DNA of 64,000 nt, from NCBI GenBank assembly GCA_965203355.1, contig OZ241889.1, positions 3,776,001 to 3,840,000 of the forward strand, given 5' to 3'. Under the pieces are notes generated by a model. The model saw nothing but the letters and a program-made list of their open reading frames with translations, was not told where the DNA came from and ran no database searches. Both the position numbers and the translations under genes were made by a program. Numbering within the stretch: position 1 is the first letter of the stretch; the number at the start of each line of letters is the position of its first letter. Shown here one piece after another: positions 2,503 to 22,860 of this stretch. The DNA comes from Candidatus Latescibacterota bacterium (lineage in GTDB: Bacteria > Latescibacterota > UBA2968 > UBA8231).

Positions 2503-3882
2503 TTATCGGCCTAGCTCGTATTGCTTGATCTTCCGCTGTAGATTTCTCCGGGTCAGTTTAATCGCCGCCGCCGTCTGGCTTACGTTGCCGTTGGCCCTTT
2601 TTAGGGCCCGGCCGAGAAACAGCCGCTCGAACTGTGCGCGTGCCTCGTGGAAGAGCGGCTGCGGAATATCGTAGTACGTATCCTCGCCGCGATAGACCGG
2701 CTCCATCCCACCAGACAAGGAGACGGGTAGATGCTTGCGTTCTAGCTCGTCGCCTTTGGCCACTGTCATCGCCCGCATGATCGCGTTTTCCAGTTCGCGC
2801 ACATTGCCGGGCCAGTTGTATTCCTCTAAGCACTGCATAGCCTCGTTGGCAAACCCCTCAATATGCTTGTCGAGCACTCCATTGTAGCGGTTGACGAAGA
2901 AGGCACACAGCAGCGGCAGGTCGCTGAGACGCTCCCGCAGCGGCGGTATTTCAAGGGTCAGCGCGTTGATGCGATAGTAGAGATCTTCGCGGAAAGTGCC
3001 CGCCGCAATGCGGGCTTCAAGGTCTTGGTGCGTGGCCGTGAGCAGGCGCACATCCACTTGCTGGGTCTGGGTCGATCCCACCGGCTCAAACTCCCCTTCC
3101 TGTATCACGCGCAAGAGCCGAATTTGCATGTTGGTTTCGAGATCGCCGATTTCGTCGAGGAACAAGGTGCCGCCATCGGCCTCGGCAAAACGGCCAACGC
3201 GGTCGCGCACGGCTCCGGTAAAGGCCCCTTTGACGTGGCCGAACAGTTCGCTCTCCAGCACGCCCGGCGACAAGGCCGCGCAGTTGCAGCGCACCAAAGG
3301 CTTTCCGGCCCGGTCGCTGGTGCTGTGGATGGCGTTGGCCACCAGTTCCTTGCCCGTCCCGCTCTCGCCCCGAATCAGCACGGCGACCGGCGTGGGAGCC
3401 ACATCGCGGATGAGTTGGTAGAGCTGTCTCATGCTCTCGCTCCGGCCCACCAAGTTGCCGAACTCCCCTCGCCGCTCCCGCCGCAGCGCCTCGTTTTCCG
3501 AGCGCAGCGTCTGCAACTCCAAGATGCGGTCGAGATGGGCTAGCACTTCCCCAATGTCAAAAGGTTTCGACAGGTACCCGTAAGCACCTAACTTGACGGC
3601 GCGCACCGCGCTTTCCACATCGGCATAGGCCGTCAGCATGACGACTTCTTCCCGACGTTGCTGCTTTTTGAAAATCTCCAAGAAGCCAAGGCCATCCAAG
3701 CCTGGCATCCTCAAGTCGAGAAGGATGAGATCGAACTCCTCGTTGTTCAGCAGGGTTAGAGCCGCCTGGCCGCCGCCGCACGTGGCCACTTCCAAGCCCT
3801 CGCGTCGCAATAAAATGGCCGACAAGTCCAATAAGTCCTGCTCGTCATCTACCATGAGTATCCTGCCTGCGCGTTTGCTCAT
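2503..3882 (-). CDS. Sigma-54-dependent response regulator (NtrC/AtoC family)
   Basis: REC domain (LLDLRMP), Walker A GESGTGKE, GAFTGA loop, WPGNVREL, Fis-type HTH. Confidence 0.96.
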   Translation of the reverse strand: MSKRAGRILMVDDEQDLLDLSAILLRREGLEVATCGGGQAALTLLNNEEFDLILLDLRMPGLDGLGFLEIFKKQQRREEVVMLTAYADVESAVRAVKLGAYGYLSKPFDIGEVLAHLDRILELQTLRSENEALRRERRGEFGNLVGRSESMRQLYQLIRDVAPTPVAVLIRGESGTGKELVANAIHSTSDRAGKPLVRCNCAALSPGVLESELFGHVKGAFTGAVRDRVGRFAEADGGTLFLDEIGDLETNMQIRLLRVIQEGEFEPVGSTQTQQVDVRLLTATHQDLEARIAAGTFREDLYYRINALTLEIPPLRERLSDLPLLCAFFVNRYNGVLDKHIEGFANEAMQCLEEYNWPGNVRELENAIMRAMTVAKGDELERKHLPVSLSGGMEPVYRGEDTYYDIPQPLFHEARAQFERLFLGRALKRANGNVSQTAAAIKLTRRNLQRKIKQYELGR

Positions 3883-3883
3883 G

Positions 3884-6007
3884 TCAGTCTTTCCTCTTGG
3901 CCTTTTCTATCGGTAAGTACAGCGAAAAAAGCGTGCCTTGGTCGAGCACGCTTTCGACCTCAATCCGGCCGCCGATCTCCTGTATTTGCCGGTGGACGAT
4001 GGCCAGCCCCAGCCCGGTACCGTGCCCCGGCGGTTTGGTCGAATAAAACGGCTCGAATATCTGCCGGATGTGCGCTTGGTCAATGCCCGTACCCGTATCG
4101 CCGATCTCCACTATCACCCAGTCGTCCCGCTGCACAGCCGAGATGCGCAACGCGCCGCCATCGGGCATGGCTGCCAAGGCATTGCTGATTAGATTGAGAA
4201 AAATATCCTTGAGCATATCCCGATTCACCCATACCGGCGACACCGCGTGCAAGTTAGCCTCAATAGCTATGCCGAGATGCTCGGCGTGTTTTTGTTCGAG
4301 GGCGACCAGTTGCCGTAGGATGCCTGTTGGATCGACCCACTCCTGCACCTGCTGGGCGGGTCGGGCAAAGTCCAGCAGATTGAGCACCCGCTCATTGATC
4401 CGGCCAATAGCCGCGCCCAGGGGCCTGAGCGCTTGGTCCCGCCCTTCCACTTCCGGCGGAACAATCTGCTCCAACAACTCGTAGGCGTGCCGGATGATCG
4501 CCAGCGGATTCTTGATTTCGTGTGCCACGCCAGCCGCCATCTCGCCGAGGGAGGCCAGTTTCTCAGCTTGGCCGTAGTGAAGCTCCAGCAGCTTGCGCTG
4601 GGTTTGGTCGTCAACTACCAGCAACAAAGACCCGGGCAAGGCCCCGGCCAAGTCCAAGACCTTCAAGTTCCAAAACCGGGTGCCGCCTTGCGGCCCCTTG
4701 ATCGCCAAATTGTCAACCTCCTTCGCCTTGGGGTTGCTGTCGATCCAGTCCCAAAGCTGCTGCCCCTCGGCCGTGTGCTCCCAAGCGTCGGCCCGGTCTT
4801 CGCCAAAGAGTTGGTGCCAGGCCTTGTTTATCCGCACGGTCCGCCGCTGCTGGGACACCACTGCAATCGCGAGGGGATTGTCCTCGATGAGCCGGTCGTT
4901 GAAGTTCAGCTCGGCTTTGAGCTCGGCTTTGCGGGCTTCGAGGGCTTGGTTCATTTCGGTGAACGCCTGCCCCAATTCCCACAGCTCGTCCTTTATGGCC
5001 GGCAACTCAAGGGCAAACGCCTCGCCCGCCTGCACGGCCCGCACCGTGTGCATCAGCCGATTGATGGGACGAGTGATCGACCGCAGCAGGGCCAAGCCCA
5101 GCAAAATGGCTCCTACCACCGAGGCGACCGTGATCCAGTTGGCGCGTTGCTGCATCATCGCCACCAGCCCAAACGCCTCGCCCGCCTCCTGCCGCACCAC
5201 CACGGTCCAGCCCCAGTCCTCAATCTGCGCCAAACCCGCCACCCACTCGCGCCCCTCAATGTCGCGCCATTGCCGGGTGCCGTCGCCGCTTAGGCGGGGC
5301 ACGAATTCGGGATGGGGGGCATCGACATAGACATCTTGGCGTTCGGGCAAGGCAATGTAGCGACCTCGCGCGTCCAACAATATCCCGCGCCCGGTGTCCC
5401 CCAGCCGAATTTGGTCAACCTGGTGCCAGACTTCGTACAAAGCGAAACGGGCGATCAAAGCGCCGACCACTTGATCGCCCTCTTTGACCGCCAAGCCAAT
5501 AAACAGGCTCGGTTGCCCTGCGTGCTGGACGACCTCTGAAGCGTAGAACGCCTCCCGCTTCACCGCCGCCCACAGCAACCGAGCACCGGGCAAATAATCC
5601 GGGGGCAGCCGCGCCCCGCGCTGGAACGGCCCCTCGACATCGAGGACGCTAGTAGCTTGGATCAAGCGGGTCGTATCGACGAAGCAAAGTTCGGCTACCG
5701 CGTCCAGCTCCAACCCAACCTGACTCAACAGACTCTGCCGCCGCCAAGGGTCGCGGACCACGTTCATGCTCTGGGCCAGCACCTCGAGGCTGGCGATGGG
5801 CTGCGCGAGAAAATGGTAGATCTCCCGCGCCGCCCGCTGCGCCACCTGTTGGTGGCTACCGAGCACCGCCTGCTCTAGCGCACTCCGCGCCGTGTACACG
5901 AGTACGCCAGCCACTAACAGCACAGGTACCAACCCGACGATCAGGTGATTGCCCAGCAACCGCACCCACAGGTGCTGCATGTTGGCGATAAGGGCCATAC
6001 CCTTCAT
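3884..6007 (-). CDS. Sensor histidine kinase (Cache-HAMP-PAS-HisKA-HATPase)
   Basis: Two TM segments, HAMP, AHEIKNPL H-box, N/G boxes (NALAA, DTGTGI, GTGLGL). ATG 6007 overlaps the upstream TGA (ATGA), so the longer ORF start at 6292 was rejected. Confidence 0.93.
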   Translation of the reverse strand: MKGMALIANMQHLWVRLLGNHLIVGLVPVLLVAGVLVYTARSALEQAVLGSHQQVAQRAAREIYHFLAQPIASLEVLAQSMNVVRDPWRRQSLLSQVGLELDAVAELCFVDTTRLIQATSVLDVEGPFQRGARLPPDYLPGARLLWAAVKREAFYASEVVQHAGQPSLFIGLAVKEGDQVVGALIARFALYEVWHQVDQIRLGDTGRGILLDARGRYIALPERQDVYVDAPHPEFVPRLSGDGTRQWRDIEGREWVAGLAQIEDWGWTVVVRQEAGEAFGLVAMMQQRANWITVASVVGAILLGLALLRSITRPINRLMHTVRAVQAGEAFALELPAIKDELWELGQAFTEMNQALEARKAELKAELNFNDRLIEDNPLAIAVVSQQRRTVRINKAWHQLFGEDRADAWEHTAEGQQLWDWIDSNPKAKEVDNLAIKGPQGGTRFWNLKVLDLAGALPGSLLLVVDDQTQRKLLELHYGQAEKLASLGEMAAGVAHEIKNPLAIIRHAYELLEQIVPPEVEGRDQALRPLGAAIGRINERVLNLLDFARPAQQVQEWVDPTGILRQLVALEQKHAEHLGIAIEANLHAVSPVWVNRDMLKDIFLNLISNALAAMPDGGALRISAVQRDDWVIVEIGDTGTGIDQAHIRQIFEPFYSTKPPGHGTGLGLAIVHRQIQEIGGRIEVESVLDQGTLFSLYLPIEKAKRKD

Positions 6008-7611
6008 TTCCCCGGCCGGGGCGTACGCTGCGCCCAGTACCACGCCGGCAAACTGCGAAAAATCCCCTTGTGTACAATCGACTCCAATCCTCGCAACGGC
6101 TGCCGCACCGCATACATGACCGGCTCTTTGCAGATGAAAATCGTGGGGTGATCCTCCAGCAGATGGCGGTGAATGTTTCTGTAAATAGCGATGCGCCGGT
6201 CCGCGTCGTAGGCCGCCCTCCCGGCTTCGATCAGCCGATCCATTTCGGCATTCGCATAGCCCGACCAATTGTGCGCGTGCTGCGAATGCCATTCCGAGAC
6301 GGTTATATCCGGGTCAAAGGCACTGTACCCTTCCCCTAATACCATGTCGAACCGCGTTCTCATGGCAGAGAATGCTTGTAGAGACTCGGTCTGCATCCGC
6401 AGATGAATCCCGACTTCTTCCAGATCCTTCCGCAACTGGGCCGCGATGTCGTGCCGATGCGGCACCTCCTTGACCATGACCAAGGTCAATTCCAATGCCT
6501 CGCCGTCCCGCTCGCGCAGCCCATCTCCATCCGCATCCACCCAACCGGCGGCCCGCAGTATGGCCCGGGCACGCCGCTGATCTTTGACCGGCACGGCCAC
6601 TTGCGGATCGCTATAGACCGAGCCGGGCGGAAAAGGCCCGGCGATAAAAACGGAATCGGCCGTTGCCGCTCCGCTGAGCAGACGCCATATGGCCGGGCGA
6701 TCAATCGCATGGTGAAGCGCCTCCCGCACGCGCCGATCAGCCAACACCGACTCTAAGCGGCAGTTTAAGCTCAGTGCCGTATAGGACAAACCCGGTTCTG
6801 TGATCACGTTGAAGGCCGGATTGTCGGCCACACTCTTCAGGTCGTCGGGCGCAGCGGATAGGGCTACATCGCTCTCGCCGCGCATAAATGCGGCCCAAGC
6901 ATGCCGCGTGTCCGGGTAATCGCCGCGCACCTCCACCGTATCTAGGTATGGACGCCCGCCGTAATACCCCTCAAAGGCCACCATCCGCAGGTGCGCCGCG
7001 CCCATCCAACCGGCAAAGCGGAACGGGCCCGCTCCAATGGGATGCCGGTTGAACGGCAATTCATCCAGCCCATAGCCAGCCGCCACTTGCGGCTCCACGA
7101 GGTGCTTGGGCAGAATGTGGAGCCGCAAGTGCAATAGAGCCGACCACTGGGGTGGAGCGGCATAGTGGAGCCGCACAATGTCGTCGCTGAGCACTTCAAC
7201 CCGCTCAAAGAGCAAATGCTCCCCGTTTTGCTGCGCTCTCATCAATCGCAGCGTGAAAACCACGTCCTCAGCCGTTACCGGATGACCATCGTGGAACTGG
7301 ACATCCGACCGCAGCAAGATGTCCCAAGACTTGAGGTGGGGGCTGAATGGCCAAGCTACGGCCAGCCCCGGGGCGAGCTGACCGTTGGGCATTTCCGCAA
7401 ACAGGCGTTCAAAGAGCAGGTCCAAGACCTCGGTGCTCACGGTGTGGGAGGCCATGAGCGGATTGAGCGGCTCCAGGCCTCCGGTTGCTCCAATCCGCAC
7501 TCGGCCTCCATAGAAAGGCCCGTCGCGGTCGGTCTCACTACAACCCCAAAAGAGAAAAAATATCCATACTACGGTCGTGCCTGTGCTTGGGGCACGGACT
7601 GGACGCCCCAT
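6004..7611 (-). CDS. Family 5 (peptide/nickel-type) substrate-binding lipoprotein with no adjacent ABC permease
   Basis: Lipobox-like FWGC, FHDGHPVTAEDVVFT, PIGAGPF, DRRVREALHHAIDR motifs. Confidence 0.9.
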   Translation of the reverse strand: MGRPVRAPSTGTTVVWIFFLFWGCSETDRDGPFYGGRVRIGATGGLEPLNPLMASHTVSTEVLDLLFERLFAEMPNGQLAPGLAVAWPFSPHLKSWDILLRSDVQFHDGHPVTAEDVVFTLRLMRAQQNGEHLLFERVEVLSDDIVRLHYAAPPQWSALLHLRLHILPKHLVEPQVAAGYGLDELPFNRHPIGAGPFRFAGWMGAAHLRMVAFEGYYGGRPYLDTVEVRGDYPDTRHAWAAFMRGESDVALSAAPDDLKSVADNPAFNVITEPGLSYTALSLNCRLESVLADRRVREALHHAIDRPAIWRLLSGAATADSVFIAGPFPPGSVYSDPQVAVPVKDQRRARAILRAAGWVDADGDGLRERDGEALELTLVMVKEVPHRHDIAAQLRKDLEEVGIHLRMQTESLQAFSAMRTRFDMVLGEGYSAFDPDITVSEWHSQHAHNWSGYANAEMDRLIEAGRAAYDADRRIAIYRNIHRHLLEDHPTIFICKEPVMYAVRQPLRGLESIVHKGIFRSLPAWYWAQRTPRPGK

Positions 7612-7743
7612 CGCGCCTCATTTCTGTTGAGATATACGCCCTGAGTACGCTCAGATAATAAAGCGCAGTGTTCGGCGACAAAAGCACACCCCGCAAGACT
7701 TGGACCATCATGCAAGGGGTCTGGTGCGATAGCCGAAGCACCA

Positions 7744-8419
7744 CTACCCGGCCTTCTTAATCTCTTCGGCCACGGGCCGACTTTCCGCGGCAAAATGATC
7801 GGGGCGTTGTGATTGACAATATCATAGGGTATCGTCCCCGCCTGACAGCCGACCAGCATGATATCCGGTTTTTTCACCGCGTTAATTTCGCGCATCTTGT
7901 GATCTAGGTACGGGCCGTAGTATTGCAATGGCATCTGTCTAGGCGCGGCATAGCCCATAGGAAAGGAAAAATCCATCCCAAACAGTGCCGAATGGTGCTT
8001 TGTATCTGATCGCGATCTGTTGCTTGATCGGCTCGTTGGCATCGCCGACGATCAGCAGCCGTTTGTCGTGGGAGACGCCCCGTTGCGCCATCGCCTGCTT
8101 CCACTGGTCGAGTTGGGCAAACAAACACGCTCCACACGTCCGGCTCGTCGAGACGACCACGAGCAACGGCAGGCCGTCCCCGACGACTGCCGCGTTATCG
8201 GCCCCAGTCCACCGATTCGATCAGCTTGCGGTGTAATTTCTCCTTGAGAGCGGCGTGGACCTCATAGTTCCACTGGACGGTTTCCAAGTGTTTCAGCCGC
8301 TCGTTGAGAGCCTCCAACTCGTCGCGTTGGTCCGTGTTGTCTTGGTGTAGGGCCAAGGCGACCGAGCCGAGGCCAAGAGATAGTGCTAGCAGTGCTTTAG
8401 CTAGCTTAGTGATATTCAT
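7744..8419 (-). pseudogene. Frameshifted membrane-anchored CxxC thioredoxin-like protein
   Basis: Strong RBS, then four frame segments: MNITKLAKALL..ESVDW / ADNAAVVGDGLPLLVVVSTSRTCGAC.. / GMDFSFPMGY..KPDIMLV.. / DHFAAESRPVAEEIKKAG*. Two of the shifts fall in GGGG or CCCC runs. Confidence 0.55.
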
Positions 8420-8455
8420 GGTAAGGGTTCCTTTCTCTATAGTTGTTATGGATGA

Positions 8456-9406
8456 TTAGTTGTCGGCGATTGAAGTTCGCACAAGACGCACACCAACAGA
8501 GTAATCACCAGATTCGGGATCCTTGGCCGCACGACTCGCGGACCGCGAATAGATGACAGGATCGATAAAGTCACCACCACGTATGACGCGGCCGTGCAGA
8601 CCACCGTCGACGATGGGGCTAGCAGCAGGGCCTACCGGCGCCACCCGAAGCGAACGCTTGTAATAGGCTTTGTCATACCAATCCGCCACCCACTCCCACA
8701 CATTACCGTGCATATCATACAAGCCCCAAGCATTCGGACGATGGTGCCCCACCGCATGAGCATACTTCTCATAGCGGTCCAGCGTATTGTCGCGATACCA
8801 CATATAGCGGCCAAACGAAACCTTACTTTTGTCATACCACCACAGGGTGGAAAACGCCCCCGCCTCGTTGCCAAACGACCACAGCGTCGTCGTTCCACTC
8901 CGACAGGCATACTCCCACTCGGCCTCGGTCGGCAACCGATACCCGGCCGACCCATCAAGGCCATTGAGCCGGTGTATCAGGGCTTGGGCATCGTGCCAAG
9001 AAACATACACGGCCGGATGCGACGGGTTGGACTGCACCAACTCTTTGTCGGTGTCATCAGGCCAACGCCAAGGCGTCGTGCCCATGATCGCCTGCCACTG
9101 GCCTTGCGTCACTTCGTGTTTGCCCAACCAGAACCCCGCCCGAATCACCACTTCGTGTACGGGCAGGGAGCCTTGGTCAAGCGCGATGGCTTCCAACTCT
9201 TTCAGCCACTCGTCGTCTGGCAGGTGATCGCCCATCTGAAAGGTGCCCGGCTCGATCCACACAAACGTCAGTTGGGTGCCGCCGGGCAGCGTAACGGTCT
9301 GCTCTTGGCCGACGTCTCGTTGTGCTGTATCCTCGGCGTAGGCTGCGTGGTTCCCAAGCCACCCAACGCCCGCTATGGCGAGTAAAAGCATCCGTGTATT
9401 CATCAT
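8456..9406 (-). CDS. Formylglycine-generating enzyme (SUMF1/FGE-sulfatase) domain protein, secreted
   Basis: Signal peptide, PGTFQMG, RLPTEAEWEYACR, PNAWGLYDMHGNVWEW, RVIRGG. Confidence 0.92.
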   Translation of the reverse strand: MMNTRMLLLAIAGVGWLGNHAAYAEDTAQRDVGQEQTVTLPGGTQLTFVWIEPGTFQMGDHLPDDEWLKELEAIALDQGSLPVHEVVIRAGFWLGKHEVTQGQWQAIMGTTPWRWPDDTDKELVQSNPSHPAVYVSWHDAQALIHRLNGLDGSAGYRLPTEAEWEYACRSGTTTLWSFGNEAGAFSTLWWYDKSKVSFGRYMWYRDNTLDRYEKYAHAVGHHRPNAWGLYDMHGNVWEWVADWYDKAYYKRSLRVAPVGPAASPIVDGGLHGRVIRGGDFIDPVIYSRSASRAAKDPESGDYSVGVRLVRTSIADN

Positions 9407-9465
9407 GTGCTCCTTATGGAATGAACTGCCGGTCGGCAGATTTGAAATGGAGGTGTCGTCCCGCC

Positions 9466-10599: not shown

Positions 10600-10642
10600 A
10601 ACATTCCTCCTTGTGGATTAGTGACGCATCCTCGCAGAGCCA

Positions 10643-10690
10643 AAGGGCCTCCGTATGAGACCGCTTGATAGAGCGGGTAAAGGCCGCGTC
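10643..10690. repeat. 48-bp direct repeat, partner at 13713-13760
   Basis: AAGGGCCTCCGTATGAGACCGCTTGATA(g/c)AGC(g/c)GGTAAAGGCCGCGTC, 46/48 identical. Confidence 0.92.
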
Positions 10691-10717
10691 CAACGGAATG
10701 GAAGGCATCGTCCCGCC

Positions 10718-14063: not shown

Positions 14064-14154
14064 CACGACGATGAAATACATAAGTTAATGATAAACAATA
14101 AGTTATAAGAAGTAGGATACTTTGTGCAGGCCGCCGCCTTGCGTTGGCATTGCA

Positions 14155-14341: not shown

Positions 14342-15161
14342 ATGGCCGCATCCTACCCCCGCATTCCCTACGGCTGGGCCGATTTCCGAGCCATCCGCTT
14401 GGAAAACCGCCTCTACGTCGATAAGACTCGCTTTGTCCACGCACTCGAAGACGAACGCTATGCCTTGCTGATTCGTCCGCGGCGCTTGGATCAGTTTTCC
14501 CTTAGAACAGTTGGACCAGCCGGAAAACTTCCTGTCGCTGCTGTACTACTTCGGTCTGCTTAGCATGCGCACCGTGGCGCACGGTGTGCCTCGGCTAGGC
14601 ATTCCCAACCAAACGGTTAAGCGGCTGATGTACGGTTATCTACGGGATGCCTACGGGGATGTAGGGGTGTTTTCCGTCAGTCAGTATACCTTCTCCCGCT
14701 TGGTGCGGCAGATGGCCTACGAGGGAGCTTGGCAACCCGTGTTGGACTTCTTGCGCGATGCCTTGGCCGAACAAACCGGCATCCGCGACTACATGGATGG
14801 CGAGAAGGTCATCCATGGCTTTGTCGCCGCCCACTTGAGCATGGTCGATCAGTTTCTGCTGCACTCGGAGTACGAACTGAACAAGGGCTATGCGGATTTG
14901 TACTTGGAGCCGTTTCTCGCTCAGTATCCCGATGTGGGGTTCGGCTACGTGCTCGAACTGAAGTACCTGAAGCGAAGCGAAGCCTTAGATGCCGCTTTGG
15001 TGACAGAAAAAGTGGCGGAAGCTGTGGTACAGTTGCGCGGCTACCTAGCCGACCCGTCGTTGCGGCGGAGCACTCGGGCGGTGCGGCACCTGGGCTTGGC
15101 GATGGTGTTTCACGGTTGGGAGCTGGCGGCCTATCAAGCGGTGGACGATGCGGGCGACTAA
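14342..15161 (+). pseudogene. Internally deleted AAA-ATPase-like / PD-(D/E)XK_9 nuclease gene
   Basis: N-terminal IPYGWADF...YVDKT...RPRR breaks off before the expected Walker A FGKS and is joined out of frame to SFPLEQL..ENFLSLLYYFG..IPN..GYADL..ELK. Confidence 0.8.
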
Positions 15162-15171
15162 CAGCCCTACG

Positions 15172-16833
15172 TCAACCGCACTTGGGCCGTTCCGTCGCCC
15201 GGTGCAAGCTCAAGTACAGCATCGGCAAGTAGATCGGCAACAAAATCGACGACGCCACCAAGCCGCCGGTCACGCCTACGGCCAGCGGATACCATATACT
15301 CTCCGTATCCTCGAACAATACGATCGGCAAAAGCCCGGCCAACGTGGTCAGGGTGGTAATGGCAATGGGCTTGAGGCGGTGGGCCGCGGCCGCGAATACC
15401 TCGGCCGCGAGGTCGCCAGCCCCGGCTTTGGCCCTCGCGTCCATCTGATACAGCATGAGAAAGGCGTTGTTGACCGCTATGCCAGCCAAGAAGAGCACGG
15501 CGATATAGCCGCCGGTGTCAAAGCTGGCCCCTAAAAAGTAGAACGCATCGAACAGGCCAATCAGCGCCATTGGAACCGCTAAGACCACCAAAAAGGGTTT
15601 GGTCCAAGACTCAAAGAGGCCGGCGGCGATCATCCACACGATCAGGACGGCCACGCCCAAAATGGCCATGAGTTCCTTTTTGTTGTCCGCTTCCAAGTAC
15701 CAATAGGACGCTTGGCGAGCGATGCTGAAACCGTAGGGAAACTCGGTGCGGTCAATGAGCAGGTCAATGAGTTTTTCTCCGTGTTCACGCGCCCCCAGGT
15801 AATTGAGATTTATGCGGCGCGTGTACGTTTGGTTTTCGCGCACTATTTCGGGTTGTATCCTGCTTTTTTCGAGTCGGACCAGCGCGCCGAGCCGCACGTG
15901 GTCGCCGATCTCTTGTCCTTTTATCTCGTCGCTGGAGACCACGCTGGCACCGCGGAACTTAATGGCCACCTCGCGCAACTCGCCAGCCACCCAAAGGCTT
16001 CGCCGCGACGCCGCGGTCGTCTGCTGCCTCAGCGTCTCGACGACGCGGTTGTTGTCCAGCCCATAGGCGCTGATTGCGTCCGCATCCAAGCGGCCAATCA
16101 TCTCGTAAGGCTCGTCGGTGCTGTAGCGCGCCACCGCGTCTATATCGACATCGCGAATGCGCTTGTGCTGGGCGAGTTGGTCGGCGAATCGTTCGGTTAT
16201 CTCCCGCAGCTTGAGATAGTCGCTGCCCTCGGCCTTGAGCGAAAACTGGGCAAAGTTGCTCAACAGCGCCTGGTGATGCTGGAAACCAAACCCGCTTACT
16301 GAAATCGCCACCCCGCCGATATTGGCCGCGTGTTTGGTCAGGGCCGCGTACACCTTGCTGGGGAACGCGAGATAGTCGTCATCCGCGGCGAGTGCGATCT
16401 CCATCCGCGCCGACCGCGGCGAGTAGTTGACCGCCACTTTTTCTATTTGCTCCATGTACGGGGCCAGCGCCGACTCAAACCCAAAACATAGTTCCTCCAT
16501 CTTTTGCACCGGCACATTGCTCGGCATAGTAAAGGAAACCCGCAAGCTCTGAGGCGCATTCCGGCCAAAGACCTCCCCCTTGTGGACTTGCTGAAAAAAC
16601 AGATACGACGCCCCGCCCAGCACCTTGAACAACAGCGGTTTGGTCTCCTCGTCGAACTGGGGGTCCATCCACCAGTCCTCGTACGCACGCGCGACCGCGC
16701 CATCCTCGCCGATGGAGTCGGGCAGCCGCCAGACGGGCAGGCCCCACAGCAACACCAGCACCGCCAACATGATCCGGCGATGTTGGCAACAAAACCCGAG
16801 CAGGGCGACGTATGTTCGGGACGGCAAACTCAT
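15172..16833 (-). CDS. RND efflux permease, C-terminal half (TM7-12) of a split gene
   Basis: LFESWTKP, GIAVNNA, RLKPIAITTLTTLAGLLP; in frame with the upstream half across a single TAG. Confidence 0.82.
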   Translation of the reverse strand: MSLPSRTYVALLGFCCQHRRIMLAVLVLLWGLPVWRLPDSIGEDGAVARAYEDWWMDPQFDEETKPLLFKVLGGASYLFFQQVHKGEVFGRNAPQSLRVSFTMPSNVPVQKMEELCFGFESALAPYMEQIEKVAVNYSPRSARMEIALAADDDYLAFPSKVYAALTKHAANIGGVAISVSGFGFQHHQALLSNFAQFSLKAEGSDYLKLREITERFADQLAQHKRIRDVDIDAVARYSTDEPYEMIGRLDADAISAYGLDNNRVVETLRQQTTAASRRSLWVAGELREVAIKFRGASVVSSDEIKGQEIGDHVRLGALVRLEKSRIQPEIVRENQTYTRRINLNYLGAREHGEKLIDLLIDRTEFPYGFSIARQASYWYLEADNKKELMAILGVAVLIVWMIAAGLFESWTKPFLVVLAVPMALIGLFDAFYFLGASFDTGGYIAVLFLAGIAVNNAFLMLYQMDARAKAGAGDLAAEVFAAAAHRLKPIAITTLTTLAGLLPIVLFEDTESIWYPLAVGVTGGLVASSILLPIYLPMLYLSLHRATERPKCG

Positions 16834-16836: not shown

Positions 16837-18333
16837 CTAAACCGCGCTTTCTCCCCGCCTGTCCAAGACCAGCATGAGCGGCGGCAGCAACAGGCAGGAT
16901 AAGAGGAAGGAAAAGAGTACCGTGGCCCCGAGTGCCAACGCTACGGGTTTGAAATAGAGTTGCAGGGTTTGCGAGAGAAAAAAGACCGGCAGCAAGGCTC
17001 CGACCGTCGTCAGGTTGGAAGCCAACAGCGGCCTTAGCACCCCGGCGACCCCGGCGAGTATCCGCTGCCGCGCCGCGCCGCCACCCGTTGTTAGGTGACG
17101 CTGGACGCTGTCGTACACCACGACCGAGTTATCGACGCTCAGGCCGTAGCCCACGGTCAATCCGGCCAAGGTCAACACGTTCAGGGTCATGCCGGCGAGA
17201 TGGAGCAAGCCCACGGTGTAGGCCAGCACCAGCAGGATCGTACCCCAAATGAGCAGGGTCGCCGATACCTTCCTGTAGGTGAAGACGACGATGGCCGCAA
17301 TGAACAGCACCGCAAAAAAGGAGCGGTTGCCGAGCTTGGCCAATTCCTTTTTCAATTCCTCGCCCTTGTCCAGTTCCTTAACCAAGCCAATATCCGGCGG
17401 AGCATCCCGCATGACGCGCGCCATGGTAGCCTTGACGGCCGCGGACGTTTCGAGCAGGTCCACGCCCGGATACTTCTCTATGGTAATTAACACGGAGTTT
17501 TTCCCGTTGACGCGGCTGCGGCTAAAGTCGGCGGGCGCGTCCCAATATATCCGCGCAATATCCCCCAAACGGACCGCGGCCGAACCCACGGGTATTTGCC
17601 TGAGCGTCTCCAGATTGGCATAGCCTCCGTCAAAGCGCACTTTTTTCGCCGTGCCGGCGTCCCACAGCGTTCCCAAGCTCGATTTGCCGCCGCTCAACTG
17701 CCGCTGCAACCGCTCTAGATCCTCGCTGGACAGCCCGGTGCTTGCCACGGCTTTCCCGTCTATCTCGATCGCGAGTTCGAGCCGCTTGCCTCCTTCCAAC
17801 TGCACGTCTTTGATGCCGGCCACCGCGAGCAAGGCTTTTTGGATGCGGGTTTCTGCGTACTCCCGCAACTCGCCGGGTCGCCGGTCGCCGTACAAGCGGT
17901 ACCGGAGAAAACCGGCCAAGTCCGCCAGTTCTTCGGGCACCGCGCGTTCAATCACCGGCCAAGAGGCCGCTGCGGGCATGGTCTCATAGAGCGAGTGAAC
18001 TCGTTCGTTCAATTCTATTTCGAGCAAGCTGACATTCGCCTTAGCATCGAATTGCACCGCGATTTCGGCGTGGCCTTCCCGGGTTTGCGAGCGAATGGAG
18101 GTGACGTGGTCCAATTGCTGGACCAACGACTCCAGCGGCCGCGTCACCGCAGATTCTAGGCTGAATGCCGAGGCCCCGGGCCATTGCACCCCGAGGCGCA
18201 ATTCGGGCAGTTCACTCGGCGGCGACAACTCAACCGAGATGACCGCAAAACTCGCCACCGCCAAGAGGCCGAGCGTAGCTACTGCGGTGAATACCGCGAT
18301 GGGATGGTCGAGGGTCCAGCGTATCGCATACAT
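16837..18333 (-). CDS. RND efflux permease, N-terminal half (TM1-6) of a split gene
   Basis: WPGAS...VTRPLE, GLSVDNSVVV, LLASNLTTVGALLP. Confidence 0.82.
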   Translation of the reverse strand: MYAIRWTLDHPIAVFTAVATLGLLAVASFAVISVELSPPSELPELRLGVQWPGASAFSLESAVTRPLESLVQQLDHVTSIRSQTREGHAEIAVQFDAKANVSLLEIELNERVHSLYETMPAAASWPVIERAVPEELADLAGFLRYRLYGDRRPGELREYAETRIQKALLAVAGIKDVQLEGGKRLELAIEIDGKAVASTGLSSEDLERLQRQLSGGKSSLGTLWDAGTAKKVRFDGGYANLETLRQIPVGSAAVRLGDIARIYWDAPADFSRSRVNGKNSVLITIEKYPGVDLLETSAAVKATMARVMRDAPPDIGLVKELDKGEELKKELAKLGNRSFFAVLFIAAIVVFTYRKVSATLLIWGTILLVLAYTVGLLHLAGMTLNVLTLAGLTVGYGLSVDNSVVVYDSVQRHLTTGGGAARQRILAGVAGVLRPLLASNLTTVGALLPVFFLSQTLQLYFKPVALALGATVLFSFLLSCLLLPPLMLVLDRRGESAV

Positions 18334-18334: not shown

Positions 18335-21300
18335 TCAGGTTTTCCCCGGCTGATTTCCGAACACCAATGAGTAAACCACCGGGACCACGATCAGCGTCAG
18401 CCCGGTCGACAGCGTCAGCCCGCCGATGATGACCCAAGCCATTGGCTGATGCAATTCCGCGCCCTGCCCGGTAGAAAGTGCCATCGGCAACAGACCCAGC
18501 ACTGTGGTCACCGTGGTCATGGCTATGGGGCGCAGCCGCTTGCGGCCCGCTTCGGCTATGGCGGTATGCAGGTCGGCCCCGGCTAGGTGGCGGTTGCGGA
18601 TAAAATCCACCTTGACGATCGAGTCGTTGACCACAATGCCGACGAGCACCACAGCCCCCATAGCCGACATAAAATTGAGCGTCTGACCCGTCGCATAGAG
18701 CGTCGCAACCGCGCAGACCAGCGCCAGCGGTACAACCGCAATGACCACGAAAGGCATCTTGAGCGATTCAAACTTGGCGGCGAGGATGGCAAATACCAGG
18801 CAAAAGGAAACCGCCAAAGCCAGCGCCAAGTCGGCCAACATCTCCTGCATCGCGTCGTCAACCGCCCCAATCTCCAACCAAACGTCTTGGGGCTTTTCTA
18901 TCCGGTCCGCCGCGGCCGTCAATTCCCGCCTAGCCGCGGCCACATCCCCTTGCACGAGTTCGGCCCCCACCTCCACGATCCGGCTGCGGTTTTTCCGATG
19001 CAGCGCAGCATAGCCCGTGTAAGGTGCGATGGAAACCAACTGATCGACCGGTGCGTACGCGGTCTTATCCTGCTGGCGAATGGGATAGCTCAACCGCTTT
19101 AGGGCTTCCGTTCCGATATCCCCTTCCCGGCCCACGACCAACCGGACATCCACCTCGCGAGCATAGTCGGCCAACGAGGTCGGCTGGCTGCCTTGTACCG
19201 CACGGCGGAGAAAGTCGGCGAGTTTGGCCGCGTCAATGCCGTACAGTGTCGCCTTATCGCGGTCGAGGGCCACTTCGTACCCACCAGCCCCGGCGGCGAG
19301 GCTCGACTGGACGCGCCCAAAACGCGGCATGTCCTCCATCAGCTCCACAATAGCCTGGCTCACCGCGGCCAAGTCGCCCCAGTCCTCGCCGTTTAAGCGC
19401 ACAGCGAAATCGCTGGTCTTGGGCGGGAAGAAGTGCTCGAGAAAGGACGGCGGCGACCGCACGCTCAGCTCGTACCCGGCGGCCGGGCGGCCCAAAGCAC
19501 TTAGCCGCGCCGCGACCGCGTCGGTATCGGCCGCTCGGGCAATTTTCACCTCGATCGCGGCCTTGTTGGCCCCCGGGCGGTGCGACTGGTCAAAATCGAC
19601 ATCCGTTATGCCCACAGATGAATAGACCGTTTGGATCGCCGGGTCCGCTCCCAAATGCCGCTCGATTTCAGCGACTGCGGCCAGCGTCCGCCGCAGCATG
19701 GACGACGCTGGAAATTCCACTTCGAGCACCAACCGCTTCCGGTCCACTGTGGGCATTAACTCCCGCTCGACCCCGGCCCCCAAGAGCAAACCCAGCCCAG
19801 CCGCTACCGCCAGCGCGGCCAGCGTCGCGGCCTTGTTTCGCAGGCAGACCGCCAAGAGACTTTCGTACCGTCGGATCGCTCCCGCGCCCAGCGCGTCGGC
19901 GCGGTCGCCGAGTGGAGCGAGCAAGGGCAGCTTGCCCAGCAGACGCGACTGGCCGCGCGACAGCAGCATGGAGACTAGGGTGATCGACGCAAATAAAGAT
20001 AGGGTCAGCGACGCTACGACCGTGATGGCTTGATCGAAGTACAAGGCCCCGGCCAGCCCTTCGATGTACACCAGCGGCAAAAAAACAGACACCGTCGTGA
20101 ACGTCGAGGCGGCAATGGGCAGACTGACCTCGCGGGTGCCCTCAATGGCCGCTTCCACCAGCGGACAGCCCTGTTGCCGGAATCGCTTCACATTGTCGAG
20201 GACGATGATGGAATTATCGACCAAGATGCCAATGCCCAAGGCCAGCCCGCCGAGGGAAACCACGTTGAAGTGAATGCCCATGCTGTACATCACCGCAAAG
20301 GTGATGACAATGGATACAGGCACCGCCAGCCCCACGACCAACGGGCTTTTCCAGTCGCGGATGAACAGAAACAGGACGAGTACTGCGAAAAAACCGCCCC
20401 AGTACAGGGAAGAGAGGACATTGTCTACGGCCTCTTGAATGAACTCGGATTGGTCGAAAACCGGAATCACCCTGAAATCCGGGAACTCAAGTGCCAGCGC
20501 CGCCAGCACCGCTGCTACTTTTTGGGCGGTCTTTATCGTATTATCCCCAGACTTCTTGTACAGATACAAAGTGATCGCGTCTTTGCCATTGAGCCGGTTG
20601 TAGCCGGTCGGCTCTTTGAATCCGTACTTTGCCGTGGCAATGTCCTCGAGGAAAACCGTCGTATTATCGACGCGCTTGACCGGTACCTTTCTCAGGTCCT
20701 CAATGTTCCGGTAGCGGCCTTCTATCCGCAGCGGATACACCAAGTGCCCTTCGCGGATGGTCCCTCCGGCCGCCCGGGTGCTAAATCGCGTCAAGGCCGC
20801 CTCGACATCGGCAAACTCCACGCCGTATGCGAGACTTTTGCGGCGGTCGATCTCGATCTCGACCTCCCTTTCCAAGCCGCCGGCCACGAGTGCTTGCGCC
20901 ACGCCTTGGACTTGCTCCAGCCGGGGTTTCACGACCGCTTCGGCAACCTCCTTGAGCTCGACCAAGGCCGCCCGATAATCCGCATCCGAAACCGGGTGCT
21001 CTATCCGGTCTCCGGTGACCGCGAGCATCATAAATGGAGACGACGACGGATCAAAGCGCAAAATCGTCGGCCTTCCGGCGAAATCAGGCAACAGTTGTTG
21101 GATCCGGTCGAGCTTGTTGCGGACCTCGATGAAGGTCAGGTCCATATCGGCGTCCCAACTGAACTCCAAGTAGAAAAGCGAGCGCTCATCCCGCGATACA
21201 GAGCGGATATTCCTAATGTTGTACAAGCCGCTCAACGCGGCCTCTATCGTTTGCGCGACCTGTTCTTCAATGTCGATGGCTGACGCGCCCGGACACTCGG

Positions 21301-21457
21301 TCTTTATCGCCAGTTTCTGAACTTCGACATCCGGCAGGAAATCCACCCCCATCTTATAAAATGAATAGCCCCCCAACAGAACGGCGGCCGCATAGACCAC
21401 AACCGTTGTTACCGGACGCCTCACAGAAGAGGCGGTCAGATTAGCCGGGGTAGCCAT
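18335..21457 (-). CDS. RND efflux permease (AcrB/MdtB-like), full length
   Basis: 1040 aa; RRPVTT start, GILVDNSIIV, GIVVNDSI, RLRPIAMTTVTTVLGLLP. Confidence 0.95.
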   Translation of the reverse strand: MATPANLTASSVRRPVTTVVVYAAAVLLGGYSFYKMGVDFLPDVEVQKLAIKTECPGASAIDIEEQVAQTIEAALSGLYNIRNIRSVSRDERSLFYLEFSWDADMDLTFIEVRNKLDRIQQLLPDFAGRPTILRFDPSSSPFMMLAVTGDRIEHPVSDADYRAALVELKEVAEAVVKPRLEQVQGVAQALVAGGLEREVEIEIDRRKSLAYGVEFADVEAALTRFSTRAAGGTIREGHLVYPLRIEGRYRNIEDLRKVPVKRVDNTTVFLEDIATAKYGFKEPTGYNRLNGKDAITLYLYKKSGDNTIKTAQKVAAVLAALALEFPDFRVIPVFDQSEFIQEAVDNVLSSLYWGGFFAVLVLFLFIRDWKSPLVVGLAVPVSIVITFAVMYSMGIHFNVVSLGGLALGIGILVDNSIIVLDNVKRFRQQGCPLVEAAIEGTREVSLPIAASTFTTVSVFLPLVYIEGLAGALYFDQAITVVASLTLSLFASITLVSMLLSRGQSRLLGKLPLLAPLGDRADALGAGAIRRYESLLAVCLRNKAATLAALAVAAGLGLLLGAGVERELMPTVDRKRLVLEVEFPASSMLRRTLAAVAEIERHLGADPAIQTVYSSVGITDVDFDQSHRPGANKAAIEVKIARAADTDAVAARLSALGRPAAGYELSVRSPPSFLEHFFPPKTSDFAVRLNGEDWGDLAAVSQAIVELMEDMPRFGRVQSSLAAGAGGYEVALDRDKATLYGIDAAKLADFLRRAVQGSQPTSLADYAREVDVRLVVGREGDIGTEALKRLSYPIRQQDKTAYAPVDQLVSIAPYTGYAALHRKNRSRIVEVGAELVQGDVAAARRELTAAADRIEKPQDVWLEIGAVDDAMQEMLADLALALAVSFCLVFAILAAKFESLKMPFVVIAVVPLALVCAVATLYATGQTLNFMSAMGAVVLVGIVVNDSIVKVDFIRNRHLAGADLHTAIAEAGRKRLRPIAMTTVTTVLGLLPMALSTGQGAELHQPMAWVIIGGLTLSTGLTLIVVPVVYSLVFGNQPGKT

Positions 21458-22626
21458 TAGAGTTCCTCGTTGACGACGATGACTTGCGCGTTGTGGGCCA
21501 AGTTGAAGTGGCCGGCCGTAATCAGCGTATCCCTAGCGGTCAAGCCGTCCCGCACTTCCACCATCTCGTCCGTCTCCGCGCCGGTTTCGACGTAGCGCCA
21601 CTTCGCCCGACCGCCCTCGTACACGAACACCACTTTCCGGTCGTCGCGGGTGAGCAGGGCGTCCCGCGGCACCAGCAACTTATCTGGGTAGCGGGCGGCC
21701 TCCACGCGCACATGCGCGAACATGCCCGACCGCACCGCTCTATCCGGGTTTTCTATCTCTATGAGGACTCGGCACGTTCGGCGTTCCGGGTCTATCGTTG
21801 GGTTCACCGATACAACGCGGCCGCGTACTGCTTTCTGCGGCAGAGCGGCCAACTCTATCTCGGCGCGCGCACCCAGCCGTATATGCCTGATCTCGGTTTC
21901 CAACACATCCATTTCGAGGCGGAGCCGATCCAGTGACACAATCCGAGCGACCACATCGCCTTTGTTGACGAAGTGGCGGCGGTCCGCTGCTACTTCCGCC
22001 ACGTATCCAGCAAACGGGGCCTCTATGATCGCGTATTCAAGTTCAATCTGCGCCTTTTTGAGTTTCAGCCGCGCCTCGTCAAGCCCGACCTGATTCGCGG
22101 CCAGTTCCTTTCTCGACTTGCTAAAAATGAGTCTGAATGCTTCGACATCGTTGGCATTCGTCGAATCAACGCCCAGCCGCTTGAACATTTGGTCCCTGTT
22201 GCCGAAGTCGCTGGTGAAGAAGGCGATGTTGGCGTATTGAGTGAGTGCCTTGTCCAGTGCCTCTTGGGCCTGTCGCTGGGCTATCCTGAGCAGGTCGTCC
22301 TCTAACAGTACTACGGTATCGCCTTGTTCCACCCAGTCGCCTTCCTGTATGAGCAGCCGCTTGATCTCAGCGGAAACTTGGGCCGTAATCTCAGCCGTCC
22401 TCGTGGCACGGACGTACCCGTACGAGACCACTTGGCGGACCAGCGGCCCCTTGTTCACCTGCATGATGGCCACGGGCTTGCGGGTATCGGCCACCGCTTC
22501 GGTCTGGGAGCGATCCTTAGCCTCTACGGGGTCCGTCGCAAAAAAGCCGATCACGGTGTCGCTCTGGCTGGCCAGCACAAACGCCAACAGCGCGAGTATG
22601 ACTGAATAGAGCACTTTGTCTTTCAT
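21457..22626 (-). CDS. RND periplasmic adaptor (membrane fusion protein)
   Basis: N-terminal anchor, lipoyl halves (EGDWVEQGD, IEAPFAG), SGMFA, VPRDAL; TAATG coupling to the RND gene. Confidence 0.93.
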   Translation of the reverse strand: MKDKVLYSVILALLAFVLASQSDTVIGFFATDPVEAKDRSQTEAVADTRKPVAIMQVNKGPLVRQVVSYGYVRATRTAEITAQVSAEIKRLLIQEGDWVEQGDTVVLLEDDLLRIAQRQAQEALDKALTQYANIAFFTSDFGNRDQMFKRLGVDSTNANDVEAFRLIFSKSRKELAANQVGLDEARLKLKKAQIELEYAIIEAPFAGYVAEVAADRRHFVNKGDVVARIVSLDRLRLEMDVLETEIRHIRLGARAEIELAALPQKAVRGRVVSVNPTIDPERRTCRVLIEIENPDRAVRSGMFAHVRVEAARYPDKLLVPRDALLTRDDRKVVFVYEGGRAKWRYVETGAETDEMVEVRDGLTARDTLITAGHFNLAHNAQVIVVNEEL

Positions 22627-22673: not shown

Positions 22674-22689
22674 GCAAATTCAGTGCCAA
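22674..22689 (-). promoter_or_regulatory. Sigma-54 promoter of the RND operon
   Basis: Minus strand TTGGCACTGAATTTGC; IHF-like tract at about 22706-22732. Confidence 0.85.
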
Positions 22690-22781
22690 ACGGAGGCAAA
22701 AAGCCATAACTCATTGTCAGATAAGGAGTTAGACAAATACACTTCACTTCGCACAAAACGCCCTCTGGCCCCTTGAGTGCT

Positions 22782-22860
22782 CCCTTTAGACGCACCTGTG
22801 CCTCTATTAAACTTCTATCTCACTTTTTTACAATGGGTTATGTCGAGTGCGTCGAAAGGG
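22782..22860. promoter_or_regulatory. Putative enhancer (UAS) inverted repeat, copy 2
   Basis: CCCTTTAGACGCA-N53-TGCGTCGAAAGGG, starting 93 bp upstream of the -24 box; same spacer length as copy 1. Confidence 0.7.

Follow-up and report, generated by a model that had tools for sequence, protein, structure and literature searches.

Introduction

In lantibiotic and class II bacteriocin loci the peptide product is sensed by a two-component system, as nisin is by NisRK. Here we analyze an island of genes from a Candidatus Latescibacterota bacterium (GenBank assembly GCA_965203355.1, contig OZ241889.1, positions 3,776,001 to 3,840,000; this whole 64-kb stretch of DNA is called the window below) that resembles such autoinduced peptide clusters. 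The island, at positions 2503-22872 of the window, shares with them a precursor whose leader is conserved and whose core varies, a stem-loop behind the gene that encodes it, a kinase and a regulator encoded downstream of the regulated promoters and, in its relatives, a protease with an ATP-binding cassette (ABC) exporter. It departs from them in its NtrC-type sigma-54 activator with enhancers before two to five operons, in the proposed sensing through an orphan family-5 solute-binding protein (SBP) and a dCache kinase, in the lack of any known maturase family of ribosomally synthesized peptides with post-translational modifications (RiPPs), and in the presence of beta-propellers and a resistance-nodulation-division (RND) pump in the regulon; its host belongs to an uncultivated phylum of the FCB group.

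The qhp system for the biogenesis of quinohemoprotein amine dehydrogenase comprises a small peptide subunit (QhpC), a cytoplasmic subtilisin-like protease (QhpE) and an efflux-type ABC exporter (QhpF), and this peptidase-less exporter moves the leaderless, cross-linked peptide to the periplasm (PMC7876137). Its genes, qhpABCDEFG, and the island have in common a small Cys peptide with a leader, a subtilisin-like protease, a peptidase-less ABC exporter and a periplasmic beta-propeller (PMC7876137). The island differs in its hypervariable core and six-bladed lipoprotein propeller and in an S8 protease below the family cut-off (139 versus 165 bits). The open reading frames (ORFs) examined gave no sign of a radical SAM protein (QhpD), a flavoprotein (QhpG) or a dihaem subunit, and in the window copy both the protease and the exporter are lost.

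The TIGR04066 'peptide maturation system' named by Haft reportedly serves Cys-rich clostridial peptides. It has in common with relatives of the island a TIGR04066-like domain and an acyl-carrier-type protein beside a Cys-rich precursor, whereas the island version scores 123 bits against a cut-off of 200, is fused to an S8 protease, has a BtrH_N-like protein as its third member and has no radical SAM partner that we saw. In pyoverdine biogenesis, ABC export by PvdE is followed by periplasmic finishing with PvdO, which has the fold of formylglycine-generating enzymes (FGEs) without the FGE cysteines, and by exit through the tripartite PvdRT-OpmQ. The route proposed here would likewise use an ABC exporter, a periplasmic FGE-fold step and a tripartite pump, but for a ribosomal peptide and with a pump of the RND type, and the FGE-fold protein reaches only 106 bits on the PvdO model (cut-off 500). 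Finally, MdtABC and MuxABC have one adaptor gene followed by two different RND permease genes. The pump unit of the island has this order too; unlike in MdtABC/MuxABC, its second permease is split at the mid-point, with the split conserved, its matches lie below the equivalog cut-offs, and the second permease has its own sigma-54 module in two related loci (L003 and L004) and is absent from a third (L034).

We read the island as an autoinduced system for a secreted disulfide peptide that is RiPP- or bacteriocin-like; the window would hold a sense-and-protect version of it, a non-producer or a crippled one. From comparative sequence analysis we estimate the probability of this reading at roughly 55%. 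Such an autoinduced ribosomal peptide system would combine a new precursor family with new partners and sigma-54 wiring, and we lean somewhat towards a bacteriocin-like peptide rather than one that acts as a signal only. A preliminary description of this DNA, which had proposed exported, disulfide-folded peptides bound by propellers and sensed in a positive feedback loop, is partly supported by our results.

Organization and distribution of the island

Positions 2503-22872 hold a run of minus-strand genes with a G+C content of about 55-65%, and searches with Pfam and NCBIfam found the gene content that the preliminary description had assigned to it. In unit A, the gene of a membrane fusion protein (MFP) is followed by RND1, RND2a and RND2b. 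Unit B begins with the gene of a 48-residue peptide, pep48, which is followed by three DUF5128 propeller genes, an FGE-fold gene, a broken thioredoxin-like gene and the genes of the SBP, kinase and activator.

Nine related loci (L001-L009) were obtained when one genome per species was scanned with the propeller alignment, and the window proteins were mapped onto them for comparison of gene order. All nine are in metagenome-assembled genomes titled Latescibacterota or Latescibacteria, and they carry the island, so that its components do co-occur elsewhere, as had been predicted. Common to the related loci are the block MFP-RND1-RND2a-RND2b, cassettes of promoter, pep48 and propeller, and the SBP, kinase and activator at the end. 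The closest relative, G001, which carries L001 and L006, was used as a stand-in for the window's genome; these two loci keep the flanks of the window (an AhpC-like gene and DUF6029), and the G001 sensor proteins are 88-94% identical to those of the window.

Eight of 167 Latescibacterota species genomes contain pep48 and eight contain the propeller (E <= 1e-60), their union being nine; a scan of JGI metagenomes with the pep48 alignment added only one further locus, L034. The island is conserved and narrowly distributed, a lineage-restricted regulon in a Latescibacterota clade. Between the window and G001, the ratio of nonsynonymous to synonymous substitution rates (dN/dS) stays within 0.14-0.34 across the SBP, kinase and activator, the two RND2 halves, the FGE-fold protein and the propellers, which indicates that the retained genes are under purifying selection and still function. 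A full-text literature search, with supplements and subscription journals outside its coverage, returned no mention of NVEALA, DUF5128, or DUF1611 with RiPP.

Two homologous sigma-54 promoter modules

The regulatory elements of the two units are as follows.

22778-22872, minus strand: enhancer (upstream activating sequence) of unit A, alignable with that of unit B; its 13-nt palindrome-like site spans 22860-22872
22844-22855 and 22778-22796, minus strand: further conserved GACGCA/TGCGTC-type elements of unit A
22674-22688, minus strand: sigma-54 -24/-12 promoter of unit A, TGGCACTGAATTTGC, exact match
14151-14245, minus strand: enhancer (upstream activating sequence) of unit B, with a palindrome-like site at 14233-14245
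14217-14228 and 14151-14169, minus strand: further conserved elements of unit B
14048-14062, minus strand: sigma-54 -24/-12 promoter of unit B, TGGCACGGAATTTGC, exact match

The whole window was scanned with the promoter consensus TGGCAC-N5-TTGC. With up to two mismatches allowed, 65 matches were observed versus 77.6 expected, and such loose matches, showing no enrichment, carry no meaning. Exact matches occur at only two places in the 64 kb, 14048-14062 and 22674-22688, both on the coding strand and in the gaps that precede units B and A; from that of unit A it is about 48 nt to the start codon of the MFP gene. The upstream regions of the two units are homologous over 250-300 nt around the promoters (72% column identity in an alignment of about 390 columns) and have three GACGCA/TGCGTC-type elements in common. 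The 13-nt palindrome-like site occurs twice in the window, about 170-185 nt upstream of each -24 element. Since the exact sites are unique and lie in homologous upstream modules, the earlier observation of about 20 kb of co-oriented genes behind two homologous sigma-54 promoters is correct and not a matter of chance.

The module is kept in the relatives. The unit B enhancer is present in all 10 aligned cassettes, and the exact promoter 15-mer occurs one to four times per locus in six of the nine related loci, on the island strand and never on the other. Before the cassettes of L001, L003, L004, L006 and L007 the 15-mer of unit B is identical; the promoters of L005 and L008 differ from it by one base. 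From the enhancer through the leader of about 390 nt described below, DNA identity between genomes is 68-81%, and copies of enhancer and promoter precede the MFP, RND2a, acyl carrier protein (ACP), pep48-propeller and redoxin-ABC operons. This shared and conserved module is what the proposed co-regulation of the two units called for. Scans for terminators and sigma-70 promoters over 2400-15300 gave no more than shuffled sequence did. The sensor genes are located downstream of the regulated sigma-54 promoters with no convincing terminator between, and a loop of this design would therefore be self-reinforcing.

The pep48 precursor peptide

Downstream of the unit B promoter, three elements precede the propeller genes.

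13648-14039, minus strand: 5' leader of about 390 nt, with an invariant Shine-Dalgarno (SD) sequence and start codon (GGAGG-N5-ATG) heading a non-conserved short ORF, and with hairpins
13501-13647, minus strand: pep48 precursor peptide, 48 aa, with a conserved 19-aa leader and a variable C..C..G..CC core
13376-13411, minus strand: 13-bp stem-loop without a U-tract, between pep48 and propeller 1

The pep48 gene has AAGGAG 7 nt upstream of its ATG, and this SD sequence is conserved. In the protein database, 15 clusters of 43-56 aa match pep48, all of them without a name or a Pfam family. The peptide leader, MIALHKPQRATYGQAVEAQ (first 19 residues), is near-invariant, with 19 invariant columns in the 15-row alignment, and its codons show dN of 0.097 versus dS of 0.475 (dN/dS about 0.2). 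The core is hypervariable except for E-[YF], two spaced Cys, a Gly and the terminal CC. A conserved leader joined to a variable core is the precursor architecture expected of RiPPs. When the database clusters were pooled with the loci, 27 distinct variants were obtained, of which 22 have four Cys and three have six; the two odd variants are visibly decayed, one with a shifted 3' end and the other with a Cys replaced. The variants end in CC to CCCC, and those without the first Cys end in CCC, so the Cys count stays even, which fits the disulfide folding suggested in the preliminary description. G001 carries three copies of pep48, one of them without its cysteines, and G145, in which the island is present, has no pep48 in 4.6 Mb.

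In 15 of 16 distinct copies a homologous propeller gene comes directly after a small Cys peptide gene, as had been anticipated, and in 15 of 16 distinct copies the stem-loop follows pep48, with compensatory double changes in six of its 13 pairs. The 5' leader of about 390 nt has 70-81% nucleotide identity across genomes and is as conserved as coding DNA; RNAalifold detected weak covariation in it (term -0.31; 8 of 86 pairs compensated), and a search of 13200-14400 against Rfam gave a single sub-threshold match, ar35, at 21 bits versus a gathering score of 45.

Several small Cys-rich ORFs had been proposed for this region, of which only the 48-aa ORF is conserved as a protein. The 22-aa ORF (13876-13944) and the 96/200-aa ORF (13553-14155) were rejected as conserved peptides: in the relatives, indels break their frames and the cysteines are not kept. 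A parallel had been drawn to Bacteroidota loci in which NVEALA-type peptides accompany six-bladed propellers and paired RNDs; the Pfam scan of pep48 gave no NVEALA (PF14055) match. No family at all was returned for pep48 by that scan, a filtered hmmscan with an E ceiling of 10 whose filters drop most matches above about 0.1. A search for the NVEALA family in G001 and 14 control genomes found no match anywhere, the controls included, and is thus uninformative.

The propeller lipoproteins and the FGE-fold protein

12104-13273, minus strand: propeller lipoprotein 1 (DUF5128/NHL-type, six blades; PF17170 39.5 bits; lipobox FAGC)
10718-11884, minus strand: propeller lipoprotein 2, recently copied in tandem from propeller 1 (92% identity)
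9466-10599, minus strand: propeller lipoprotein 3, more divergent (66-67% identity to propellers 1 and 2)
8456-9406, minus strand: secreted FGE-fold protein (PF03781 154 bits, E 6e-45)

All three propellers match PF17170 (32.8-39.5 bits versus a cut-off of 22.9) and have lipoprotein signal peptides. Propellers 1 and 2 differ with a dN/dS of 0.275, and propeller 3 is 80% identical to a G001 protein (L006:4910); the number of propeller matches ranges from one to eight per genome. Relics of the propeller C-terminus (of the DEATGEAGD... type) were found on the minus strand at 13270-13362 and about 11885-12013, a little upstream of where propellers 1 and 2 start; the tandem propellers therefore arose by unequal recombination of a unit of 3' end, spacer and gene.

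An AlphaFold2 model of propeller 1 (predicted local distance difference test score 86) has its best solved match in 4RAA (Z 24.9), followed by 3S9J (Z 19.6); the next fold neighbours are NHL domains, peptidyl-hydroxyglycine lyase, Drp35 and virginiamycin B lyase. The two best matches, BF0058 (4RAA) and BVU_1028 (3S9J), are exported Bacteroides proteins of unknown function from the DUF5128/DUF4221 families, and they share the fold over about 315-319 residues, but at a sequence identity of only 7-12%, the Latescibacterota proteins forming their own cluster. An exhaustive profile search found one full-length cluster (78%) and a few fragments at more than 50% identity; the remaining matches were only NHL-repeat and DUF5128 proteins at 20-28% identity. 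With nine distant homologs (20-25% identity) included, the propeller alignment has six invariant columns, namely D81, three Pro and two Gly. Prediction of a complex between propeller 1 (residues 29-390, 31-row alignment) and pep48 (15-row alignment) gave scores of 0.01 and 0.02, which we count neither way.

For the FGE-fold protein, PvdO is the best NCBIfam match, and solved FGEs are matched with E 2e-21. Comparison with the Streptomyces FGE showed that both catalytic (copper-binding) Cys positions near the C-terminus are replaced, in a stretch that resembles PvdO. Since both catalytic cysteines are replaced, the protein is not a formylglycine-generating enzyme. It had seemed that loss of the S8 protease was a condition for the FGE-fold gene to occur, but we abandoned this rule, as G142 has both.

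Processing and export genes lost from the window

Two gene remnants lie between the FGE-fold and SBP genes, and a third lies between the units.

7987-8425, minus strand: thioredoxin-like pseudogene, anchored by a transmembrane (TM) segment, with a CGAC motif, an 11-nt deletion and a 3' truncation
7803-8003, minus strand: remnant of an S8 protease-DUF1611 gene (residues 451-517 of 639; tblastn 85% over 67 aa)
14273-15161, plus strand: AAA-ATPase_like/PDDEXK_9 gene remnant, internally deleted; marks a cassette border and does not belong to the system

The first of these had been described as the gene of a CxxC protein. Alignment with the intact genes of L005 and L034, together with tblastn matches in two frames, revealed a frameshifted thioredoxin-like pseudogene that is cut at about residue 147 of 215 and joined to the protease remnant. 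Since the thioredoxin homology ends at about residue 147 and continues as residues 451-517 of the S8-DUF1611 protein, a deletion has removed the redoxin, the exporter and the protease domain from this copy. By tblastn with the relatives' proteins, the ACP-MauE-BtrH operon is absent from the 64-kb window as well.

What the window lacks can be seen in the fuller islands that we examined, L003 (G002), L005 (G003) and L009 (G127). They contain an operon that encodes a PP-binding carrier protein, a rhodanese, MauE, in some cases a GT4 glycosyltransferase, and a protein of 346-390 aa; an intact gene of a 215-aa membrane-anchored thioredoxin-like protein after the propeller; and, just before the SBP gene, a redoxin, a peptidase-less ABC exporter (membrane and ATPase domains) and a 639-aa protein. 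The N-terminal S8 domain of the latter has QhpE as its best match (139 bits, E 1e-40), its C-terminal DUF1611 part matches the TIGR04066 'peptide maturation system protein' (123 bits), and the protein has no signal peptide. MauE shows a weak match (23 bits) to a Cu-binding RiPP maturation family. The statement that no RiPP-modifying enzyme is visible thus holds for the window, where none adjoins the precursor gene, but is misleading for the island in general, as the fuller copies carry candidates: S8/DUF1611, ACP, the BtrH-like protein and GT4.

The loss is not confined to the window. G001 has S8-DUF1611 fragments of only 49 and 56 aa in 4.5 Mb, and its best ABC paralog is 31-32% identical to the exporter, versus 89-91% among orthologs. 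G133 has pep48 and no orthologous protease, whereas the protease is present in G142 and G126. In G145 the pump, two propeller-FGE cassettes and the sensor are kept and pep48 is gone. Because the island's own exporter and protease genes are deleted, the window copy can probably not make and export the peptide by the island's own route, contrary to the export first proposed for it.

Paralogs of the S8-DUF1611 protein, 36-61% identical, were observed at L031, L032 and L033 (in G002 and G003), each beside an ACP gene and, in L031 only, followed by a BtrH-like gene. In a brief look at these three loci, one showed a divergent NtrC-type activator and sigma-54-like -24/-12 sites, and no propellers were found there. 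The S8-DUF1611 maturation module may serve several peptide systems.

The AAA-ATPase_like remnant matches an intact 598-aa L005 protein by tblastn in residues 2-71 and 384-598 only. Genes of this AAA-ATPase_like/PDDEXK_9 type, intact (about 598 aa) or as fragments, are found on the opposite strand at cassette borders in L003, L004, L005, L007, L008 and L009. They may mark or drive cassette shuffling.

The sensor

6004-7611, minus strand: orphan family-5 solute-binding lipoprotein (SBP_bac_5, E 5e-62)
3884-5980, minus strand: sensor histidine kinase, TM-dCache-TM-HAMP-PAS-HisKA-HATPase (Pfam; start inferred from translation)
2503-3882, minus strand: NtrC-family activator, receiver-AAA+-HTH_8 (Sigma54_activat E 2e-69)

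The best solved relative of the SBP is the oligopeptide binder AppA (E 1e-46), followed by nickel and opine binders, in line with its earlier description as a peptide-type family-5 protein. Position 6004 is the end of its gene and position 5980 the start of the kinase gene, and in the Pfam scan the island has no permease or ATPase genes. The pairing of SBP and kinase is found in all six related loci that reach that far (L001, L003, L004, L005, L008 and L009). Binding-protein-dependent two-component sensing is known from the LuxP/LuxQ and TorT/TorS types, and an orphan binding protein beside a kinase without a permease, as predicted here from the sequence, is the arrangement typical of them. 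The activator has the receiver residue D56, Walker A at 172 and GAFTGA at residue 219, the complete set of bEBP motifs, and rpoN is present in G001. The dN/dS values against G001 are 0.235 for the SBP, 0.14 for the kinase and 0.19 for the activator.

The RND pump

21457-22626, minus strand: MFP, periplasmic adaptor (HlyD_D23, HlyD_3; TIGR01730 RND_mfp 186 bits, cut-off 94.9)
18335-21457, minus strand: RND1 permease, 1040 aa (ACR_tran 693 bits, profile positions 4-1020 of 1021)
16837-18333, minus strand: RND2a, N-terminal half of a split permease (ACR_tran profile positions 3-486)
15172-16833, minus strand: RND2b, C-terminal half of the split permease (ACR_tran profile positions 608-1020)

All three components ascribed to unit A, the MFP, the RND permease and the split RND permease, were found. 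A tripartite pump calls for a periplasmic adaptor and a 12-TM RND permease, and both are matched here, ACR_tran over its full length in RND1 and in two halves in RND2. RND1 falls below the NCBIfam subfamily cut-offs. The split of RND2 is identical in all five other loci that carry RND2 (L003, L004, L006, L008 and L009) and therefore does not represent damage; RND2b and its G001 ortholog have a dN/dS of 0.245. Among the 41 window ORFs scanned none matched the OEP/TolC family, in agreement with the earlier statement that the island has no TolC gene, and in G001 all 14 OEP domain matches lie elsewhere, none in the island. The outer-membrane channel would thus need to be supplied in trans. RND pumps draw their substrates from the periplasmic side.

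Other loci in the window

Next to the island, a 7-bladed lactonase-family gene (22894-23934, minus strand) ends at the unit A enhancer and adjoins the MFP gene in L034 too. At the other end, as also in G001, the activator gene is faced by a convergent gene of an AhpC/TSA-type redoxin (1966-2484, plus strand). At 28171-31510, a restriction pair of the McrBC type (AAA_5 and McrBC component) has a G+C content of 0.50-0.52 versus about 0.60 and looks horizontally acquired. Imelysin (Peptidase_M75), a di-haem oxidoreductase, PepSY_TM and a TonB-dependent receptor at 36286-42420 look like an iron-uptake locus. A second binding-protein-linked sensor set is encoded at 43998-48899, with a response regulator-SpoIIE phosphatase fusion, Peripla_BP_6 and a histidine kinase of the TorS-sensor type.

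Discussion

The complete form of the system can be modelled on the relatives G002, G003, G127 and G142. In this model, the pep48 precursor would be trimmed in the cytoplasm by the QhpE-like S8 protease fused to the DUF1611/TIGR04066-like domain, and might also be decorated by ACP, the BtrH-like transferase and GT4. The peptidase-less ABC exporter would move the peptide to the periplasm, where it would be oxidised by MauE and thioredoxin-like proteins and would meet the propeller lipoproteins, joined in some islands by the FGE-fold protein that resembles PvdO. The MFP-RND pump would then expel it across the outer membrane via a channel encoded elsewhere. Outside, the peptide would be reported by the orphan SBP to the dCache kinase, which would phosphorylate the NtrC-type activator; the activator would bind the GACGCA-n-TGCGTC enhancer before every operon and fire the sigma-54 promoters. 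The order of these steps is supported by topology: the protease lacks a signal peptide and is most like QhpE, a cytoplasmic enzyme, the exporter is peptidase-less, and a location outside the cytoplasm is shared by MauE, the propellers, the SBP, the thioredoxin-like proteins and the FGE-fold protein.

Since the core is kept under selection without exporter and protease, and in one relative without the peptide, production appears to be dispensable and the core to be a response to the peptide. The window copy would accordingly be an inducible sense-and-protect module, for immunity or eavesdropping, and not a producer. If the core is a peptide response, the propellers can be assigned the role of periplasmic binders or inactivators of the peptide. 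The sequences show the gene content, the homology of the promoters and enhancers, conservation and selection, the leader and core of the peptide, and the deletions; we infer the role of the propellers, the sensing of the peptide by the SBP, the ligand of the sensor, every biochemical step above, and whether the peptide kills or acts as a signal only.

Several of our findings weigh against this interpretation. RND pumps are not known to secrete peptides, and the 41 window ORFs gave no OEP/TolC match. All curated-family matches of the maturation genes lie below the NCBI cut-offs, and the BtrH-like assignment of the 346-aa protein is weak, combining language-model likeness (atlas score 0.98) with a Pfam match of only E 0.075. 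The invariant propeller columns include no His, Cys or Ser and so indicate no catalytic site, and the propellers, with dN/dS of 0.17-0.32, show no overall diversifying selection. Similar peptides adjoin different propeller types, for example in the window and in L006, which means that the pairing is not strictly cognate, and proteins of about 370 aa would be unusual as immunity proteins. Moreover, pep48 is intact in the window, where no gene could modify or export it, which fits a pure non-producer poorly.

The same genes could also be put together differently. If pep48 were the cross-linked, possibly cofactor-bearing small subunit of a periplasmic propeller enzyme, on the model of quinohemoprotein amine dehydrogenase (QhpC with QhpB) or methylamine dehydrogenase, the sensor would respond to the substrate of this enzyme. 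QhpE as the best family of the relatives' S8 domain (E 1e-40), the peptidase-less ABC exporter that follows as in qhpF, the presence of MauE and a redoxin (MauD fold class) in the relatives, and a periplasmic beta-propeller gene immediately after the peptide gene in 15 of 16 copies would all be expected of such a holoenzyme. Its propeller would, however, be of the 7-bladed type and not a 6-bladed NHL/DUF5128 lipoprotein; the pep48 core is hypervariable and has no conserved Trp, with Trp absent from most cores; and G145 keeps its propellers without a peptide gene in the genome. In addition, 15 ORFs of L003 and L005, picked by eye for Pfam and not in a search aimed at these families, included no radical SAM, flavoprotein or haem families. 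We regard a holoenzyme as unlikely. Cysteine-rich peptides ending in CC to CCCC also bring to mind a buffer or chelator, like the periplasmic Cys-peptide copper buffers, within an envelope thiol or metal stress regulon in which the RND pump would export a metal or a thiol-reactive toxin and a NikA-like SBP would sense the stress with the kinase. RND1 indeed scores 431 bits on the CusA/CzcA model, but it scores higher, 584 bits, on a multidrug-type subfamily model, and its TM4 region does not seem to have the charged-residue pattern of heavy-metal RNDs. The MFP matches CusB/CzcB models, the SBP resembles NikA (137 bits), MauE has its weak match to the Cu-binding family (23 bits), and a rhodanese, redoxins and an AhpC-like neighbour are present; against these stand the strictly even Cys counts, which favour disulfides over free thiols, and the hypervariable core, conserved leader, leader-type protease and dedicated exporter, which are hallmarks of secreted peptides. 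Such a stress regulon seems to us improbable.

One may also ask whether the window island, after the loss of exporter and protease, is simply heading to pseudogenisation and has no useful role. One frameshifted, truncated gene and two gene remnants inside the island are what decay would leave, as is the G001 pep48 copy without cysteines. The remainder does not look like a relic: dN/dS is 0.14-0.34 for all eight retained genes against G001, the promoters and enhancers are intact, and the propellers are freshly duplicated (copies 1 and 2 being 92% identical, with dN/dS of 0.275). This makes decay the least probable of the alternatives, and an improbable one. The autoinduced peptide system, with a sense-and-protect copy in the window, remains the reading that we prefer.

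A bolder version of the preferred reading would have pep48 define a novel class of secreted peptides that are locked by disulfides, may be N-acylated (through ACP, the BtrH-like protein and DUF1611) and exit by the ABC and then the RND route, with propellers of the DUF5128/BF0058 type as its binders or inactivators, and with the window, G001, G133 and G145 as non-producers that keep an eavesdrop-and-resist regulon with expanded propeller arrays. Taken as a whole this is unlikely, but if true, it would provide the first function for a propeller family common in Bacteroidota.

The autoinduced peptide reading would add a precursor-peptide family from a phylum without cultured members, each pep48 variant being, if the reading is true, a naturally diversified scaffold of 24-29 residues that two or three disulfides hold together. 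Autoinduction by a peptide in a cell of the Gram-negative type, wired by way of sigma-54 with a binding protein as co-sensor, would be rare. For the DUF5128/BF0058-like propeller lipoproteins the reading provides a first hypothesis that can be tested, and the relatives with and without the exporter, the protease or the peptide would constitute a natural experiment that sets producers against eavesdroppers.

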